Assembly (NCBI GenBank): GCA_900770385.1
Contig: CAAGKK010000037.1
Coordinates: 6,195-70,194, forward strand
DNA: 64,000 bases
Direction: 5' to 3'
From: Clostridia bacterium
GTDB lineage: Bacteria > Bacillota > Clostridia > TANB77 > CAG-508
Made by a program: the position numbers and the translations under genes. Shown here in pieces: positions 1,513 through 7,487 of the stretch (positions are counted from its first letter, which is position 1; each line of letters starts with the position of its first letter). Under the pieces are notes generated by a model. The model made no database searches and had not been told where the DNA came from. It saw nothing but the letters and a program-made list of their open reading frames with translations.

Positions 1513-2802
1513 TTATTTGCTATTTGTAAAATATTTATTACTTAAGTTATATAATTCTTTTTTAAATTCTTCAATTTGATTATCATTATAGCTATCCCTT
1601 AATGCAACAGCTTTTTTAGACCATTCTTTGAATTGCTTTTCTTTAAAGTCTTTAGGATGGTTATAATGTCTGCCATACATTTTTTTATATTCTTTTTTGA
1701 ATTCTTTTAAAATATCGCTATTATCAACCTTTTTTTTATATTTGTTTGAAGCACCAATTTCTTTGCAAGTTTTACCAGTATCTTTATATAAATTATTACA
1801 ATATTTTTGGTCATTTCTTCCTTTTTGATATGGATTGTTGCTAGTGGTAGTTGGAATAAATAATCTTCCGCAGTTTTCACACTTATTTATAGTAAAATTA
1901 TTCTGAATTACTTTAAATAACTCAAATTTGATTTGTTCTTCACAATTATTTATCTCATAAACTTCTTCAACATATATATTTTTTGTATGCATTACATTAA
2001 TCAATTCTTCTACAGATAATTGTTTCTCTTTAAAAGTTATATCAGCATTGCAAATATATTTAGTTACAAATTTTGTGTCTAAAAATAATGCGTGGGCAGG
2101 ATTAGTGTTCAAATAATGTAAATCAAAAACATCTTTAGCTTCATATAAATATAATCTTTCTTCATTGCTCAAATTTCGAACAAAAGAATTATTAGAATAT
2201 TCACTTATTAATTCTAATCTTTCTTTCAAGTCGCTTTTTTGATTTATAAGGTCTTTTATTAAGTAATCCTTTATTGTTTCAAAAAATTTTATATATTTAT
2301 TATGTTTCTTTTTCGAGATTTTATCTATTTCAGTAGTCCACTCATACATAATTGTTTGAAGGACATAATGGTTTTCTTCTATTTCTTCAAATATTTCATT
2401 TGGAGTATATTCAGTATTGTCAATATATACTCCAATATTATTCTTGAATAAAAGGTCACTTCTAAATACTCCCGAATTATATGTTTTTATGATTATATCT
2501 ATTAAAGTTTGAGTGTAAAAATGTGTATATGGAGAAAAATTCAAACATTCTTGGACTTTATGAAACATTTCAAATAAAAAATTAACCTTTTTATCCATAC
2601 CATTACATTCTTTATTGCTACAAACAATGTTAATTAATTCTGTATATAGAATTTTTAGTTTATCAAATTCATCATTTTCCATAATTGCAAAATCATATAA
2701 TTTATCTCCAATATTGTATTCAAAATCCAAAGTAGAACCAAAAAATTCTCCTCCATTTTTTAAAATAATTTTATTGTTATTAAGTGTGAAATTACTTGTC
2801 AT
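1513..2802 (-). CDS. Hypothetical protein with a C-terminal Cys-rich (zinc-ribbon-like) region
   Basis: Long ORF of 429 aa. CENCGRLF...YCNN...TCKEIG cysteine pattern. No family recognised with certainty. Confidence 0.45.
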   Translation of the reverse strand: MTSNFTLNNNKIILKNGGEFFGSTLDFEYNIGDKLYDFAIMENDEFDKLKILYTELINIVCSNKECNGMDKKVNFLFEMFHKVQECLNFSPYTHFYTQTLIDIIIKTYNSGVFRSDLLFKNNIGVYIDNTEYTPNEIFEEIEENHYVLQTIMYEWTTEIDKISKKKHNKYIKFFETIKDYLIKDLINQKSDLKERLELISEYSNNSFVRNLSNEERLYLYEAKDVFDLHYLNTNPAHALFLDTKFVTKYICNADITFKEKQLSVEELINVMHTKNIYVEEVYEINNCEEQIKFELFKVIQNNFTINKCENCGRLFIPTTTSNNPYQKGRNDQKYCNNLYKDTGKTCKEIGASNKYKKKVDNSDILKEFKKEYKKMYGRHYNHPKDFKEKQFKEWSKKAVALRDSYNDNQIEEFKKELYNLSNKYFTNSK

Positions 2803-3138
2803 AACTGTGTTTCCTCCATTTTTTAAATAGAATATAGCTATTTTGATTTTTAGTTTATCTATAGACTTTGAAAAATCTATTTACAACACTATTTTAGCAT
2901 CTTATAATGATTTTAGCAATATAGAAAATAGAAACTTGAAATAACTATTTTCTATCAACAGCACATTGAAAATTGAATAACAAACTGCAAGCACAGATAA
3001 TGAAACTTCTGTCCGGCTAACGTGATGTAAAGGGGCGGTTCGCTAAAGGTGGAATGAGGGCAAATCTCATATGAGTATTTAATTTACTACTTGTAGTTTT
3101 AAAATTAAAGTAATATTTTTAAATTTTTAATAATAGTA

Positions 3139-3345
3139 TTGAAAAGAAAGTTGGTGAGAATTTTGAAAAAGGGTTTGAAGATTACATTTATAAATCCTAA
3201 TACTGAAGAACAAATAGTACAAGCTATGGCAGGAGTTCTTGCTTATAATTTGGATGAGAATGATGAAAATATAAAATTTGACTACAACAATTCAAATACT
3301 TATCAAAATTCTCACAAAGAAATAGAAGATGAAATTGAATTATAA
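3139..3345 (+). CDS. Small hypothetical protein (non-ATG start)
   Basis: ORF of 68 aa only. TTG start, no clear RBS. Confidence 0.2.
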   Translation: MKRKLVRILKKGLKITFINPNTEEQIVQAMAGVLAYNLDENDENIKFDYNNSNTYQNSHKEIEDEIEL

Positions 3346-3380
3346 TGACAAAAAATATAGAAAAATTTTTACAAAAAGTC

Positions 3381-3409
3381 TTGATATTTTAATAAAAAGT
3401 TTGTATAAT
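3381..3409 (+). promoter_or_regulatory. Sigma-A type promoter of the type III TA locus
   Basis: TTGATA (3381-3386), 17-nt spacer, then TGtTATAAT (extended -10, TATAAT at 3404-3409). A 5' hairpin atagtagatat/atatctactat follows. Confidence 0.6.
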
Positions 3410-3449
3410 GAATATAATAGTAGTAGATATTTAATATCTACTATAATTA

Positions 3450-3545
3450 AAAATGTGAGTCGCAACCCTATTTGCGAATTAAATGGATAGGTGAGAAAAT
3501 GTGAGCCGCAACCCTGCTTGCGAGATATAAATGGGCAGGTGAAAA
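3450..3545 (+). ncRNA. Type III antitoxin RNA candidate: two tandem 46-48-nt repeats plus the start of a third
   Basis: Unit 1 is aaaatgtgagtcgcaaccctatttgcgaattaaatggataggtgag. Unit 2 is aaaatgtgagccgcaaccctgcttgcgagatataaatgggcaggtga. Each unit holds a short hairpin (cgcaa/ttgcg). The repeats lie between a promoter and a terminator, directly upstream of a ToxN/AbiQ-like ORF. Confidence 0.7.
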
Positions 3546-3565
3546 AATGTTAATTATAGTAAAAT

Positions 3566-3598
3566 GTGGGGTCTATAAAAAAATAGATCCCATATTTT
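3566..3598 (+). terminator. Intrinsic terminator between the antitoxin repeats and the toxin gene
   Basis: Hairpin tggggtctat-aaaaaa-atagatccca followed by tatttt. Confidence 0.6.
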
Positions 3599-3622
3599 CA
3601 TAAAAGGAGAAATGTAATAAAA

Positions 3623-4099
3623 ATGGTAATAGAAGATGGAAAATTTTACTTTATAAAAGATGAATTTTTTGATGTATTTAAAGATTATGGTTTGATGGTA
3701 AATAAAGAAAATGGAAATAAAAGACCGTGTTACTTTTGTTTCAGAGATAGACAAAACAAAGAAATAATATGGTTTGTTCCAATATCTACTAAATATGACA
3801 AATATAAGAAAATCTATGACATAAAAAAAGTTAAAAGTGGAAAAAGACCAGTATATAACTTTGTTTTTGGTAATGTATTGGGAAAGAAAGCAGTATTTCT
3901 TATACAAAATATATTTCCTACAACTATAAAATATATAGAGAAAAAATATAGAAATTCTAATATGGATGTTGAAATTCCAGAAATTGTTAAAGAAGAAGTT
4001 ATTACAAAAGCATTAAGAGTAGTAAATCTTGCAGAAGATGGTGTAAATATTCCATTTTACAATATAATAGAGATGAGAAATATATTACTAAAAAGATAG
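3623..4099 (+). CDS. Type III TA toxin, ToxN/AbiQ-superfamily endoribonuclease-like (CptN-like by size and repeat length)
   Basis: 158 aa. N-terminal FYFIKDEFFDVF...NKE...RPCYFCFRD...IIWFVPISTKYDKYKKIY resembles ToxN/AbiQ/CptN-type toxins. The locus architecture (promoter-repeats-terminator-ORF) is diagnostic. Confidence 0.6.
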   Translation: MVIEDGKFYFIKDEFFDVFKDYGLMVNKENGNKRPCYFCFRDRQNKEIIWFVPISTKYDKYKKIYDIKKVKSGKRPVYNFVFGNVLGKKAVFLIQNIFPTTIKYIEKKYRNSNMDVEIPEIVKEEVITKALRVVNLAEDGVNIPFYNIIEMRNILLKR

Positions 4100-4144
4100 A
4101 ACAGTGACAATGGCACACAAAATGACACTGAAAGAGAACTAATC

Positions 4145-4290
4145 AAATGTACTCGCCACCCTGTTGGCGACAAATAAATTCACAAGTGAACAGATGTTAC
4201 TCGCAAACCTACTTGCGACAAATAAAAGCGTAGGAGGACAAATTGAAACCGCTGACCAATATGCGGTATATAAGTAGTTGGGGGGTGAAG
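4145..4290 (+). repeat. Second array of three diverged antitoxin-like 47-50-nt units downstream of the toxin stop
   Basis: D1 is aaatgtactcgccaccctgttggcgacaaataaattcacaagtgaac. D2 is agatgttactcgcaaacctacttgcgacaaataaaagcgtaggaggac. D3 is aaattgaaaccgctgaccaatatgcggtatataagtagttggggggtgaag. The hairpin is kept by compensatory changes (tcgcaa/ttgcga, tcgcca/tggcga, accgc/gcggt). Confidence 0.6.
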
Positions 4291-4292
4291 TT

Positions 4293-4340
4293 TAAAATCT
4301 ATTCCAAAATAAAACGGAGTAGATTTTTTATTTTTCGTAT
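4293..4340 (+). terminator. Terminator closing the TA transcription unit
   Basis: Hairpin aaaatctattcc...ggagtagatttt followed by a T-rich run. Confidence 0.45.
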
Positions 4341-4419
4341 TGTCTTTTTACAACTAATATGCTAAAATGCAACAGAACGAAAACAACGAAACAGAAAAAA
4401 TAAAGAAAGTAGTGATGTT

Positions 4420-6054
4420 ATGAAAATTGCAGCATATTGTAGGGTATCAACTGAAAAAGAAGCACAAATAGACTCATTAGAAAAGCAAATAGAATTTTTT
4501 AATGAATTTACAAAAAAGAACGGATATGAATTGTACAAGCTATATGCAGATGAAGGAATATCAGGAAAACAAATAAAACACAGAAAACAATTTCAACAAA
4601 TGATGATAGATGCCAAAGCCAAAAAATTCGATAAAGTAGTAGTAAAAGATGTAAGCCGTTTTGCAAGAAATACAGTAGACTTATTACAAAGTGTAAGAGA
4701 GTTAAAATCTTATGGTGTACAAGTTGATTTCCTAAATAATGGAGAAGTAATGGAAGGTGGCTCTGAATTTATACTAACAATTTTAGGAGCAATGGCACAG
4801 CAAGAAAGTGCAAATATGTCTAAAAGAGTTAAATTCGGAAAAGATATTACAGCCAAAAAAGGAAGAGTGCCGAATCTGGTATTTGGATATGACAAAATTC
4901 CAGATGAAAGATATACTTTAAAAATAAATGAAGAAGAAGCAAAAATCGTAAAAGAAATATTTGAAAGTTACGTATATAAAGGAATTGGAACAACAAAAAT
5001 AGCATGGAACTTAAATGATAGAGGAATACGTACTAAAAAGACAAAATCAAAATGGGTACAAACATCTATTGTAAGAATGCTTAAAAATCCAATATATACA
5101 GGAAGAGTAACAAATAAAAAATCAGAGGTAACAGACTTTATAACAGGAACAAGAAAAGAATTGCCAGAAGAAGAATGGATAGTTGTTGAAAGACCAGAAA
5201 TGAGAATAATATCAGACGAGCTATTTAACAGAGCACAAGAACTTTTAGAGCAAAGATCAAACGAATTTAAATTAAATAACAAAAGAGAAAAAACAGAATA
5301 TGTATTTAGCACACTTATCTATTGCAAACATTGTGGATATTCATTTAGAAGAATAAAGAGAAAATATACAGCTGATGGACCAGAATATATAAGATGGGTA
5401 TGTAGTGGAAGAAACTCAATGGGAGTAAACCATTGTCCAAATACAACTGTTATTGATGAAGAAGAACTTTTAAATGCAATAAAAATCTATTTAAAAAGTA
5501 TAATAAAAAATAAAAAAGATTTTATGAAAGCTGTTGAAAAAGAATTTGAAAAGATTACAAAATTAAGAGAAAACAATGAAAGAAGTGAAGAGAGTTTTTT
5601 AAAAGAAATCGAAAAAGTAACAGTTAAAAAACAAAAATATATGGAGATGTTTCAAAACGAAATAATCAATATACAAGAATTAAAGAAATATACAAATCCA
5701 ATAAATGAAGATATAGCAAGACTGGAAAGAGAATTAAAACTAATAACATCAGAAATAAAAGAAAAAGATGTACTAGAAAAAGAACTTAATAAGACAATAA
5801 AAACAGTAGATGACATATTAAATAATCAAACAATAACAAATGCAATGTTAAAAACAATTATAGATGTAATTGAAGTAGATTCAGATTCAAATGTAGAAGT
5901 AAGACTAAAACTATTAAATGAAATAGGAACAAATGAACCAGTAATAACAAGATTCGAAGACATTTACCAAAGTTCCGAAGAAAAAGAAAACACAAAAAAT
6001 AAAGAAAATTCTATCGTTACGAAAAGTAACAACAGTACACAAAGATGTAAGTGA
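4420..6054 (+). CDS. Large serine recombinase (resolvase/invertase N-domain + recombinase domain + zinc ribbon + coiled coil)
   Basis: MKIAAYCRVSTEKE catalytic-Ser N-terminus. FARN, GAMAQQES. Cys cluster CKHCGY...WVCSGR...HCPN. 544 aa. Confidence 0.9.
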   Translation: MKIAAYCRVSTEKEAQIDSLEKQIEFFNEFTKKNGYELYKLYADEGISGKQIKHRKQFQQMMIDAKAKKFDKVVVKDVSRFARNTVDLLQSVRELKSYGVQVDFLNNGEVMEGGSEFILTILGAMAQQESANMSKRVKFGKDITAKKGRVPNLVFGYDKIPDERYTLKINEEEAKIVKEIFESYVYKGIGTTKIAWNLNDRGIRTKKTKSKWVQTSIVRMLKNPIYTGRVTNKKSEVTDFITGTRKELPEEEWIVVERPEMRIISDELFNRAQELLEQRSNEFKLNNKREKTEYVFSTLIYCKHCGYSFRRIKRKYTADGPEYIRWVCSGRNSMGVNHCPNTTVIDEEELLNAIKIYLKSIIKNKKDFMKAVEKEFEKITKLRENNERSEESFLKEIEKVTVKKQKYMEMFQNEIINIQELKKYTNPINEDIARLERELKLITSEIKEKDVLEKELNKTIKTVDDILNNQTITNAMLKTIIDVIEVDSDSNVEVRLKLLNEIGTNEPVITRFEDIYQSSEEKENTKNKENSIVTKSNNSTQRCK

Positions 6055-6181
6055 GAGATTACTAAAGATAAATCCAGCATTAGCACATGATGTTAGAATA
6101 ATATTAGATGAAAATAAAGCAGAAAGACATATAAGAGGAGGTATGGCAACAAAATTAAAATACAAAAATAAAAAGAAATAA
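6032..6181 (+). pseudogene. spoIIID: 3' segment of spoIIID (last ~48 codons) with no 5' half in the window
   Basis: The frame starting at 6035 reads VHKDVSERLLKINPALAHDVRIILDENKAERHIRGGMATKLKYKNKKK*. As I recall it, the SpoIIID C-terminus is ...STVHKDLTERLPEINPDLANEVKEILDYHKSIRHLRGGEATKLKYKK. The upstream in-frame sequence has no ATG and no HTH similarity, and a stop lies at 5945. Confidence 0.75.
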
Positions 6182-6204
6182 AGATTTTTCTTTATTTCTT
6201 TTAG
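6173..6204. terminator. Bidirectional terminator shared by the spoIIID fragment and veg
   Basis: aagaaataaaga-tttt-tctttatttctt, flanked by an A-run and a T-run. Confidence 0.6.
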
Positions 6205-6211
6205 TTATTTA

Positions 6212-6508
6212 TTAAATTAAAGCTTTAGATTTTTTTACATCAACTACAGGAGGTATTAAAGGACTGTAACCCTCACCATCAAAAACATCAACCTCTACAG
6301 TTCTTGTTAAAACATCTTTATAACTATAAGTGACATTTCTTTCTTCATCATCGTATTTTACGATAAATAAATTAGGATAAGTTTTTTCGATTGTAGCCTC
6401 TTTTTCAAAAAATCTACTTCTTCCAAGAGTACCTTTTACAATTATCTTTTGTCCAATTTTTTCTGTGATATCTGTTTTTAAATTTGTAATATCATTTGGT
6501 AATATCAT
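6212..6508 (-). CDS. veg: Veg (biofilm/sporulation-associated small protein, DUF1021)
   Basis: Family-like sequence (...GRSRFFEKEATIEKTYPNLFIVKY...VTYSYKDVLTRTVEV) and conserved yabG-veg synteny. Confidence 0.8.
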   Translation of the reverse strand: MILPNDITNLKTDITEKIGQKIIVKGTLGRSRFFEKEATIEKTYPNLFIVKYDDEERNVTYSYKDVLTRTVEVDVFDGEGYSPLIPPVVDVKKSKALI

Positions 6509-6537
6509 TTAACCACCTACTTTATTAAGATAGGCAC

Positions 6538-6566
6538 ATTATATCATTATCTACATAAAAAGTCAA
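6538..6566 (-). promoter_or_regulatory. Near-consensus sigma-A promoter of veg
   Basis: The minus strand reads TTGACT, 17 nt, TATAAT. Confidence 0.6.
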
Positions 6567-6671
6567 AATAACATTATGCGACTTAAAATCAGCAAACATG
6601 CTAAAAATAAACTAAAAATGCATATAAGGATGTGAATTTTACAATTAGATTACAATATTATTACAAAAATA

Positions 6672-7487
6672 TTACAAATCTCTTTTTCCCATAGAACCTA
6701 CACCATCAATACCTTTTTTTCCATCTCTTAGGTCCTCTATAATATCATTTATAGTTAAAAATTTATTTCTAGATGTTGTAGCTATTTTTTCAGCAACTAT
6801 TAAAGGATCCATGAAATCGATTAAAATTCTAGCAGGAGAAGATGCAAAATTTGCACCAGAAGTTATTATTGCCTCAAAAAAACTTTGACATGCACCAGCA
6901 AATATAGCTAAATCTTTATTTGAAGGAATTATTTTTCGAGCTTCTATAACTGATTGAATAAAATACTTGGAATTTCTATAATTATGAATATCATTATAAT
7001 TAATTCCAGCTTTTATCATGCTATCATGTCCTGTTACTATTAAAATATCTGGTTTATATTTTGGTATTAAAGATTTTACCATTAAGGGTTGTTTAAATTC
7101 TGGTACATTGCGAACAATAGCGTTTAAACCTATTTTATTATAGTATCTTCTGGATTTTTCTGAATATCTTTTATCACCATCTAAATGTAAAATCATACCG
7201 GTATTTTGCATAAATCGGTATTTATTTTTTATGATTTTTTTATTTAATGAGGACAAAATTCTATTTTCTATTATGTTATCTGTTCTACTAATAGGATTAT
7301 CAAAATTATTAGAATCAATAATTAATAAATCATCTATAAATGCATCAGCAATAATTCTAGTTGTAATGCCTTTTAATATAGCAATTGCAGTACCATTTGT
7401 ACTACTAATTATTTTATCTACAGAAAATAAGATATCACATCCATAGGATTTTCGAGCAACAATATCATTTTTTCTTATTTTCAACAT
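6672..7487 (-). CDS. yabG: Sporulation-specific protease YabG
   Basis: IVARKSYGCDILF, ILHLDGD, ILIVTGHD and IFAGACQSFFEAIITSGANFASSPARILI match the YabG family along the full length. Confidence 0.85.
   Translation of the reverse strand: MLKIRKNDIVARKSYGCDILFSVDKIISSTNGTAIAILKGITTRIIADAFIDDLLIIDSNNFDNPISRTDNIIENRILSSLNKKIIKNKYRFMQNTGMILHLDGDKRYSEKSRRYYNKIGLNAIVRNVPEFKQPLMVKSLIPKYKPDILIVTGHDSMIKAGINYNDIHNYRNSKYFIQSVIEARKIIPSNKDLAIFAGACQSFFEAIITSGANFASSPARILIDFMDPLIVAEKIATTSRNKFLTINDIIEDLRDGKKGIDGVGSMGKRDL

Follow-up and report, generated by a model that had tools for sequence, protein, structure and literature searches.

To our knowledge, each type III antitoxin is viewed as the strict partner of its own toxin, located upstream of it. 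The canonical CptIN system of E. rectale (4RMO; PMC3401426, PMC4627078) consists of a promoter, two tandem repeats of 45–48 nucleotides (nt), a terminator and the gene for the endoribonuclease CptN, and its repeat units are able to form an H-type pseudoknot with two stems and an A-rich loop, L2. Across cptIN loci, the upstream repeats measure 40–48 nt and number 1.9–3.4 copies (PMC3401426, Table 2). Here we describe a cptIN locus within 64,000 nt of a Clostridia bacterium contig (CAAGKK010000037.1; the whole stretch is termed the window, and all positions refer to it). This locus has the same parts as that of E. rectale but, unlike it, carries a second array after the toxin gene, composed of the unit classes of other toxins and without a promoter of its own.

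Type III surveys find the repeats upstream of the toxin gene, with a single swapped locus, from Lactobacillus jensenii, in which they occur downstream only, and they also document decayed toxins next to intact arrays (PMC3401426). The L. jensenii toxIN locus is similar to that of the window in that its toxin gene is followed by antitoxin-type repeats and a terminator. It differs in lacking an upstream array and in having a predicted promoter before the repeats, whereas in the window the upstream array is intact and the downstream array is additional and heterologous. Decayed cptIN loci, in Bryantella formatexigens and others, show that antitoxin arrays outlive toxin genes (PMC3401426). In those loci a toxin fragment and the terminator stay in place, whereas the array of the window has no toxin remnant, and its units run directly into each other and into a working locus. 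A 2025 survey of tenpIN describes non-identical repeats and no double arrays, and the type III surveys and reviews that we searched do not describe any toxin with its own array on one side and a heterologous array on the other.

Antitoxins that act without a toxin of their own have also been described. Phage PhiTE is reported to escape ToxIN by means of toxin-less pseudo-ToxI repeats, some of them gained by recombination (PMC3475682). The likeness is that of a mobile element with antitoxin-type repeats and no matching toxin, the repeats being gained or expanded by array recombination and the proposed role being neutralization of another's type III toxin. PhiTE, however, is a lytic phage facing ToxIN, and the case rests on experimental proof, whereas the window holds an integrated serine-recombinase element. 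Unlike PhiTE, this element has a complete cptIN of its own, places the repeats in the 3′ untranslated region (3′UTR) of the toxin gene and combines two specificity classes. Anti-addiction modules and orphan antitoxins, of which type II examples (reviews, PMC7354431 and PMC12548467) and a phage orphan antitoxin against DarTG1 (bioRxiv 10.1101/2024.07.11.602962) are known, are similar in that a toxin-less antitoxin neutralizes the toxin of a competing element or a host defense. Those are protein antitoxins with demonstrated activity, whereas the downstream units of the window would represent an RNA version in array form.

An antitoxin-type array downstream of cptN

Between the stop codon of cptN and the first terminator beyond it lie three units of ∼48 nt (D1, D2 and D3; 4145–4288), oriented like the toxin gene (Table 1). 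Both strands of the entire window were searched with a profile based exclusively on upstream units (56 distinct ones). This profile detected D2 (32.7 bits, E = 4e-9) and D1 (30.9 bits, E = 1e-8) along with the two upstream units U2 (55 bits) and U1 (44 bits), and nothing else scored >5 bits. D3 was not significant with this profile; a profile of E. rectale-type units, applied to the same window, gave it 34.3 bits (E = 1e-9). Each of the three thus resembles bona fide upstream cptI units at E ≤ 1e-8 in 64 kb, which excludes chance and bears out the initial annotation, made from the sequence alone, in which three such units 3′ of the stop codon were proposed. A repeat search between the arrays matched 3477–3548 to 4172–4243 (72 nt, 71% identity). 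The AGTTT that directly follows D3 is where another unit of the E. rectale cptI class begins. Neither array reaches the threshold of any Rfam family in a permissive scan of 2800–4500.

In their location, D1–D3 depart from the order of promoter, units and terminator 5′ of the cognate toxin, since they follow cptN and the next gene encodes a serine recombinase. A scan for sequence signals found no promoter-like or terminator-like site on the plus strand from 4099 to 4293, in agreement with the initial annotation, which had seen no terminator between the toxin stop codon and the array. These data support a genuine cptI-like array that is, judging from the available signals, co-transcribed with cptN. 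It was also proposed that every toxin mRNA carries three antitoxin-like modules. Co-transcription is indeed plausible, but the modules are of a non-cognate kind, as described below.

A short stem-loop just 3′ of the stop codon (Table 1), of the form CAGTGnCAA...TTGnCACTG, recurs after cptN in six related loci (L006, L040, L012, L064, L066 and L069). It is seen in several toxin sub-lineages, with or without downstream units.

The rest of the locus is canonical. The 158-amino acid product matches the NCBIfam equivalog NF047359, 'type III toxin-antitoxin system CptIN family toxin', with 154 bits (cutoff 90), and its sole match in the PDB is E. rectale CptN (4RMO_A, E = 4e-19); NCBIfam and PDB thus recognized a CptN that Pfam and PADLOC missed. 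TRF places tandem units upstream at 3449–3550 (2.2 copies, period 46). With a CptN-family toxin preceded by tandem repeats of 40–48 nt and a terminator, the segment 3381–4099 as a whole has the makeup of CptIN.

Table 1. Positions of the cptIN locus, the downstream array and the adjoining end of the element
Feature	Position	Strand	Details
cptIN operon promoter-like site	3381..3409	+	TTGATA, 17 nt, TATAAT; 11/12 matches; region kept in related loci
Upstream cptI array	3450..3556	+	U1, U2 and partial third unit; tandem-repeat and profile matches. U1: S1 TCGCA/TGCGA, S2 CCTAT/ATAGG. U2: S1 CGCA/TGCG, S2 CCTGC/GCAGG
Terminator between upstream array and toxin gene	3561..3598	+	hairpin and T run; −19.9 kcal/mol, z −5.65
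cptN toxin gene	3623..4099	+	158 amino acids; ribosome-binding site AAGGAG at 3604–3609, then ATG; NCBIfam and PDB
Short stem-loop just 3′ of the stop codon	4102..4130	+	CAGTG...CACTG, no T run; weak fold, −6.1 kcal/mol
D1 unit	4145..4191	+	S1 TCGCC 4153–4157/GGCGA 4166–4170; S2 CCTGT 4160–4164/ACAAG 4182–4186
D2 unit	4192..4239	+	S1 TCGCA 4201–4205/TGCGA 4214–4218; S2 CCTAC 4208–4212/GTAGG 4230–4234
D3 unit, E. rectale cptI class	4240..4288	+	S1 ACCGC 4248–4252/GCGGT 4263–4267; S2 CCAAT 4256–4260/GTTGG 4277–4281
Backbone terminator, first 3′ of toxin gene	4294..4335	+	hairpin 4294–4327 and T run; −15.4 kcal/mol, z −4.2
Recombinase promoter-like site	4340..4368	+	TTGTCT, 17 nt, TG-TAAAAT; conserved as GATATGCTAAAATG in related loci
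Large serine recombinase	4420..6054	+	Pfam Resolvase, Recombinase, Zn_ribbon_recom; last codons overlap the spoIIID-derived junction
spoIIID 3′ part, right end of element	6029..6151	+	residues ∼36–76 of the 90-amino acid SpoIIID of L026; tblastn 90% identity, E = 3e-21

Unit classes of the downstream array

Over 4141–4243, D1–D2 are 71% identical to the upstream array of their own locus. Identity rises to 76–85% (82–85% in the best loci) when the comparison is with upstream arrays of a sister lineage, whose toxins are 65–68% identical to that of the window, and it reaches 91% between D2 and the U2 of that lineage. The sister-lineage signature (..GAC/AAATGTTAC), and not the local one (..GAGA/AAATGTGAG), likewise marks the single-stranded tails of both units. 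For D3, the 35-nt core agrees at 33 of 35 positions with U2 of an E. rectale-type locus (L095) and at 29 of 35 with the E. rectale unit itself (CptI_Er); the toxin of L095 (P0026) is only 38% identical to that of the window. The third downstream unit of another locus, L002, is identical to CptI_Er at 39 of 45 positions.

By these comparisons, D1 and D2 belong to the unit class of the upstream antitoxin of a sister CptN lineage and D3 to the E. rectale/Muricomes cptI class, and the downstream array is not a diverged copy of the antitoxin of its own locus. The initial description of a second, diverged array therefore holds in that a second cptI-like array is present; D3, in turn, represents a different cptI class and not a local copy that has drifted. 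CptI RNAs failed to neutralize non-cognate CptN at toxin identities of 35–44% (PMC4627078), and it is therefore very unlikely that D3 serves the neighboring toxin.

The initial annotation had listed the differences among the hairpins of the units (stem S1) correctly, and had read them as compensatory substitutions reflecting selection on RNA structure in place. The same stems, though, pre-exist in the upstream arrays of other lineages: TCGCC/GGCGA in the working U1 of L035 and L041–L044, and ACCGC/GCGGT in the working U2 of L095. Most likely, the variant S1 stems were imported by recombination. The substitutions thus provide no evidence that selection acted in place, and private changes among the closest copies break pairs, in S2 for D1 of the window and in S1 for D1 of L001.

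Predicted pseudoknot folding of the units

CptI_Er folds as an H-type pseudoknot in which the two stems, S1 and S2, are combined with a loop L1 of one base and an A-rich L2 (PMC4627078). The 45-nt sequence of CptI_Er, as given in the primer table of that paper, which reports the 4RMO structure, served as the reference to which the units of the window were aligned. In this alignment both stems can form in all of them, U1–U2 as well as D1–D3, and S2 thus adds a second stem to the hairpin recognized initially. In D3, S2 (CCAAT/GTTGG) stands in the E. rectale register. D1 has a single private mismatch in S2, C4161.A4185; the corresponding strand is intact (ACAGG) in L083 and L085, copies with an identical toxin.

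To score folding, pairs were counted on alignments, because the fold is a pseudoknot and minimum-energy folding of single units (z −1.1 to −1.6) is uninformative here. The downstream arrays of all loci contain 19 distinct full-length units, in which standard pairs fill 94.7% of 190 pair cells, compared to 23–53% in slid registers, and 13 of the 19 retain all ten pairs. By these pair counts D1–D3 have the potential to form the H-type pseudoknot, D1 with its one C.A mismatch in S2. In the 56 distinct upstream units, 4 of 504 cells are unpaired over the nine core pairs. The downstream units are hence well folded but measurably more damaged than working upstream units.

Some further regularities concern the upstream units. 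U1 and U2 (3450–3545 in the window) are never identical to each other in any of 81 loci, and each has its own S2 sequence, retained across lineages through compensatory changes. A fixed C.A opposition marks the base of S1 in U2 of the window's lineage. On either side of S2, the adjacent bases vary together as non-standard pairs, which are C/U in the majority of units and A/A in D2. These regularities may mean that the CptIN heterotetramer has two distinct positions for its RNA.

Distribution and divergence among related loci

A scan of species-representative genomes yielded 80 loci with CptN at 65–99% identity, or 81 including the window. Exactly two upstream units are present in every one of the 81, all on the strand of the toxin. 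Comparison with these homologs, which the initial annotation had suggested, shows that downstream units recur: they are found in 15 of the 80 and are absent from 65. Three units are present in L001 and L002, two in L043, L050, L051 and L065, one D1/D2 hybrid in L020 and L054, and one degenerate unit in L012; six loci (L007, L016, L022, L041, L042 and L044) share a 30-nt stump without the 3′ strand of S2, and this stump shows decay of its own in L016 and L044. The distance from the stop codon to the array is 12–20 nt in L043 and L050. The 14 E. rectale-type loci examined all have two upstream units and no downstream units. The double-array arrangement is therefore real and recurrent, and the layout is as unusual as was first supposed.

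In a single metagenome scan, six further contigs were found to contain the core pattern of D1, in each case (6/6) in a unit downstream of cptN; the idea that D1 is the upstream antitoxin of an unsampled lineage was rejected on this basis. The D1 pattern has no match in viral contigs, and BLAST of 3380–4420 against plasmid and phage records gave no match. A present-day tandem cptIN–cptIN arrangement was likewise rejected: a search for a second toxin gene returned one tblastn high-scoring segment pair per locus in 80 of 80 loci, and there is one cptN in the 64-kb window.

Nearly identical D1–D2 follow toxins of three sub-lineages, at 100%, 87% and 72% amino acid identity. Between these array lineages, D1–D2 are 87–92% identical, compared to 66–81% for adjacent non-coding DNA, 59–79% for four-fold sites of cptN and 67–92% for four-fold sites of the recombinase gene. 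When the window is set against L050, for example, D1–D2 are 91–93% identical, the promoter and upstream array 85%, and the toxin 72% at the amino acid level. Change is slower in the array than on either side of it and does not follow that of the neighboring toxin; upstream arrays, by contrast, do diverge along with theirs, whereas D1–D2 show no such co-variation with a partner. This slower divergence points to constraint. One caveat here is that it is confounded by obvious mosaic recombination, evident between the window and L085, in which cptN is identical at all synonymous sites and the four-fold sites of the recombinase gene are only 77% identical, so that the divergence argument is no more than suggestive.

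A mobile element at spoIIID

The array lies on a mobile element. Recombinase orthologs (85–99% amino acid identity) are found downstream of cptN, on the same strand, in 34 related loci, and the terminator ahead of the recombinase gene is conserved in elements with and without downstream units. Together, cptIN and the serine recombinase gene make up the right end of an element whose insertion has split spoIIID, a gene for a sporulation regulator. Similarity to other elements stops at ∼6162–6184. In L040, L051, L002 and L020, the 5′ part of spoIIID (codons 1–43) is located 1.2–2.5 kb upstream of cptN; with the 3′ part downstream, this identifies small elements inserted in spoIIID, some of them only ∼3.5–5 kb in size. 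The 5′ part is absent from the window, and the left end of the element therefore lies beyond position 1 or has been rearranged. The insertion looks like a sporulation intervening element of the skin or gin type; a literature search found no report of such an element in spoIIID.

Three toxin sub-lineages sit on one backbone, and all variants end at the same spoIIID junction, that is, at one shared target site. None of 14 elements that combine a sister-lineage toxin with an orthologous recombinase (86–99% amino acid identity) has downstream units, and units or stumps are present in 11 of 15 elements carrying other toxin lineages. By its distribution, the array belongs to the backbone of the mobile element and not to the toxin cassette. 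Two other assignments were considered and set aside. The terminator after the array might have been the old terminator of a sister-lineage cptI gene, with which it shares AAAATCTA...TAGATTTTTT; yet the same terminator precedes the recombinase gene in elements without units, and we therefore treat it as a backbone feature. Nor is the array the attachment site of the recombinase, the element junction being situated in spoIIID.

Possible origin and role of the array

The window thus contains antitoxin-type repeats without a matching toxin, on a serine-recombinase element that ends in a split spoIIID. Among the options raised by the initial annotation, an orphan antitoxin comes closest to the comparative data. 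We tentatively favor the possibility that non-cognate antitoxin units were captured in the 3′UTR of cptN and are co-transcribed with it, giving cross-immunity against rival CptN variants. With more reserve, we suggest that they make up a multi-specific RNA library, of sister-lineage and E. rectale type, that was assembled by array recombination and disarms the CptN of rival elements or of the host.

The capture would be due to recombination of one cptI array with another, and not to the loss of genes that once lay in between, because the units join seamlessly: the two classes are fused exactly at unit boundaries, and no promoter, terminator or toxin-gene remnant lies between them. With no promoter of its own and a position before the first terminator after cptN, the array would be made only as the 3′UTR of a read-through cptN transcript. 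A foreign CptN that recognized a unit would excise it at the unit junctions and would then be trapped in an inactive RNA–protein complex, conferring cross-immunity on the element or the host. Such a toxin might be encoded by a host locus or, as the obvious source, by rival elements that compete for the one spoIIID site, and the function would be one of anti-addiction or anti-defense. Against its own toxin, which has the canonical upstream array, the element would not need the downstream units; they would be dispensable, and they are often lost or degraded.

Several observations weigh against cross-immunity. No target toxin was found, the 64-kb window having one cptN only. The exact type of D1 is never seen as an upstream array and has no known partner, all six metagenome matches being 3′ of the toxin. 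The array is often lost or damaged, with four elements devoid of units and six loci reduced to the 30-nt stump. Four near-identical arrays (window, L001, L083 and L085) differ by four private substitutions, two of which break a stem (S2 in D1 of the window, S1 in D1 of L001), and unpaired cells are commoner in downstream units (10/190) than in upstream units (4/504). Expression solely by read-through of the upstream terminator would be low. Finally, the slower divergence could stem partly from recent mosaic recombination, which is clearly frequent here.

The main rival, which we consider somewhat less likely, holds that the array is a decaying relic: units left behind when element variants recombined, or when a second and third cptIN cassette were lost, now functionless, carried as passive passengers in the 3′UTR and heading for deletion. 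Copy number ranges from 3 to 0 among close relatives, with D1/D2 hybrids in two loci, the shared stump in six and a degenerate unit in L012, and stem-breaking changes affect not only the D1 units of the window and L001 but also D2 and D3 of L002, D1 of L065 and D2 of L081. Orphan arrays are moreover the expected survivors of toxin–antitoxin decay, because toxin loss is harmless, and cptIN loci with truncated toxins and full arrays are documented (PMC3401426). A relic should not, however, diverge clearly less than flanking non-coding DNA and synonymous sites, as D1–D2 do in three independent lineage comparisons, nor does decay sit easily with the 13 of 19 distinct full-length units that keep all ten pairs, or with two unrelated classes joined at exact unit boundaries without traces of a cassette. 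This reading, then, fits the decay well, and fits the slower divergence and the clean junctions poorly.

Improbable, in our view, is a joint reading in which the units serve the neighboring toxin, either as extra cognate antitoxin, with CptN cutting and binding them so that the toxin mRNA delivers its own antidote, or as a self-limiting device, in which cutting of the 3′UTR removes the terminator hairpin, destabilizes the toxin mRNA and provides negative feedback. Co-transcription with cptN is compatible with this, and toxins at 65–100% identity may be less selective than the pairs tested at 35–44% (PMC4627078). U1 and U2 of one array differ from each other as much as D1 and D2 differ from them, and in L043 the pseudoknot core of D1 is 93% identical to the core of the locus's own U1. 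The downstream array, on the other hand, varies independently of the adjacent toxin, unlike the upstream array, which varies with it; the tails of D1 and D2 bear the signature of the sister lineage and not the local one; the class of D3 serves a toxin only 38% identical, a distance at which cross-neutralization was not seen; and sister-lineage elements are without any downstream units. Among the three options of the initial annotation, self-limitation or an extra dose is thus less likely, the units being of non-cognate kind.

A role unrelated to toxin binding (a recombination or attachment site for the recombinase, a generic stabilizer of the 3′ end, or mere chance resemblance) is very improbable: the array does lie at a module boundary with mosaic breakpoints on both sides, and its units contain inverted repeats, but the profile E values (1e-8 to 1e-9 in the window) rule out chance, the element ends elsewhere, with its right end at the spoIIID junction, and both stems, the A-rich loop and the CptI junction motifs are kept, which a stabilizer or attachment site would not need.

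A conserved downstream array of other toxins' units would show that these RNA modules are exchanged by recombination and can be stacked. If active, the units would constitute natural cross-immunity between competing mobile elements, or against abortive-infection systems of the host, and PhiTE, so far the only precedent and a phage, would be joined by integrated elements of gut Clostridia. The loci also offer a natural set of variants for mapping CptI–CptN specificity, with three unit classes, hybrid units and compensatory stem changes. Even as a relic, the array would document the turnover of type III systems, with cassettes swapped and antitoxin arrays outliving toxins.

Other features of the element and related loci

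Upstream of the array-bearing locus, the pemK RNA motif (Rfam RF02913) gives a match at 2997–3072 that is below threshold and possibly due to chance (21.2 bits versus a gathering score of 34.8, E = 0.48); it sits 5′ of a small open reading frame (ORF) and of the cptIN promoter. A 429-amino acid DUF6076 protein (1513–2802, minus strand) and a 68-amino acid ORF (3139–3345) are cargo common to L006, L050, L054, L064, L066 and L069, and similarity to these elements begins at about position 1530.

The relation of cptIN to spoIIID varies. In L026, L044, L055, L065 and L073, cptIN is found just 5′ of an apparently intact spoIIID, and there is no recombinase gene. L065, with two downstream units, has a frameshift in spoIIID, and L044 has the stump; in both, cptIN is 5′ of spoIIID.

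In 11 other loci (L008–L010, L013, L015, L018, L019, L021, L025, L034 and L036), the same cptIN cassette is followed by a ACAGCCAATAG.. motif and then by the central part of a manganese-catalase/CotJC-like coding sequence (..HGTEELAHLEMVGT..). A distant (25–29%) serine recombinase is encoded on the opposite strand in several of these loci. It may be that cptIN is also located at the end of a second element family, whose insertion splits a sporulation gene similar to cotJC. Immediately right of the spoIIID element, the window continues on the minus strand (6212–7487) with ORFs of 98 and 271 amino acids, which, judged by eye from their translations, we take to be Veg-like and YabG-like, sporulation-related genes of the host.

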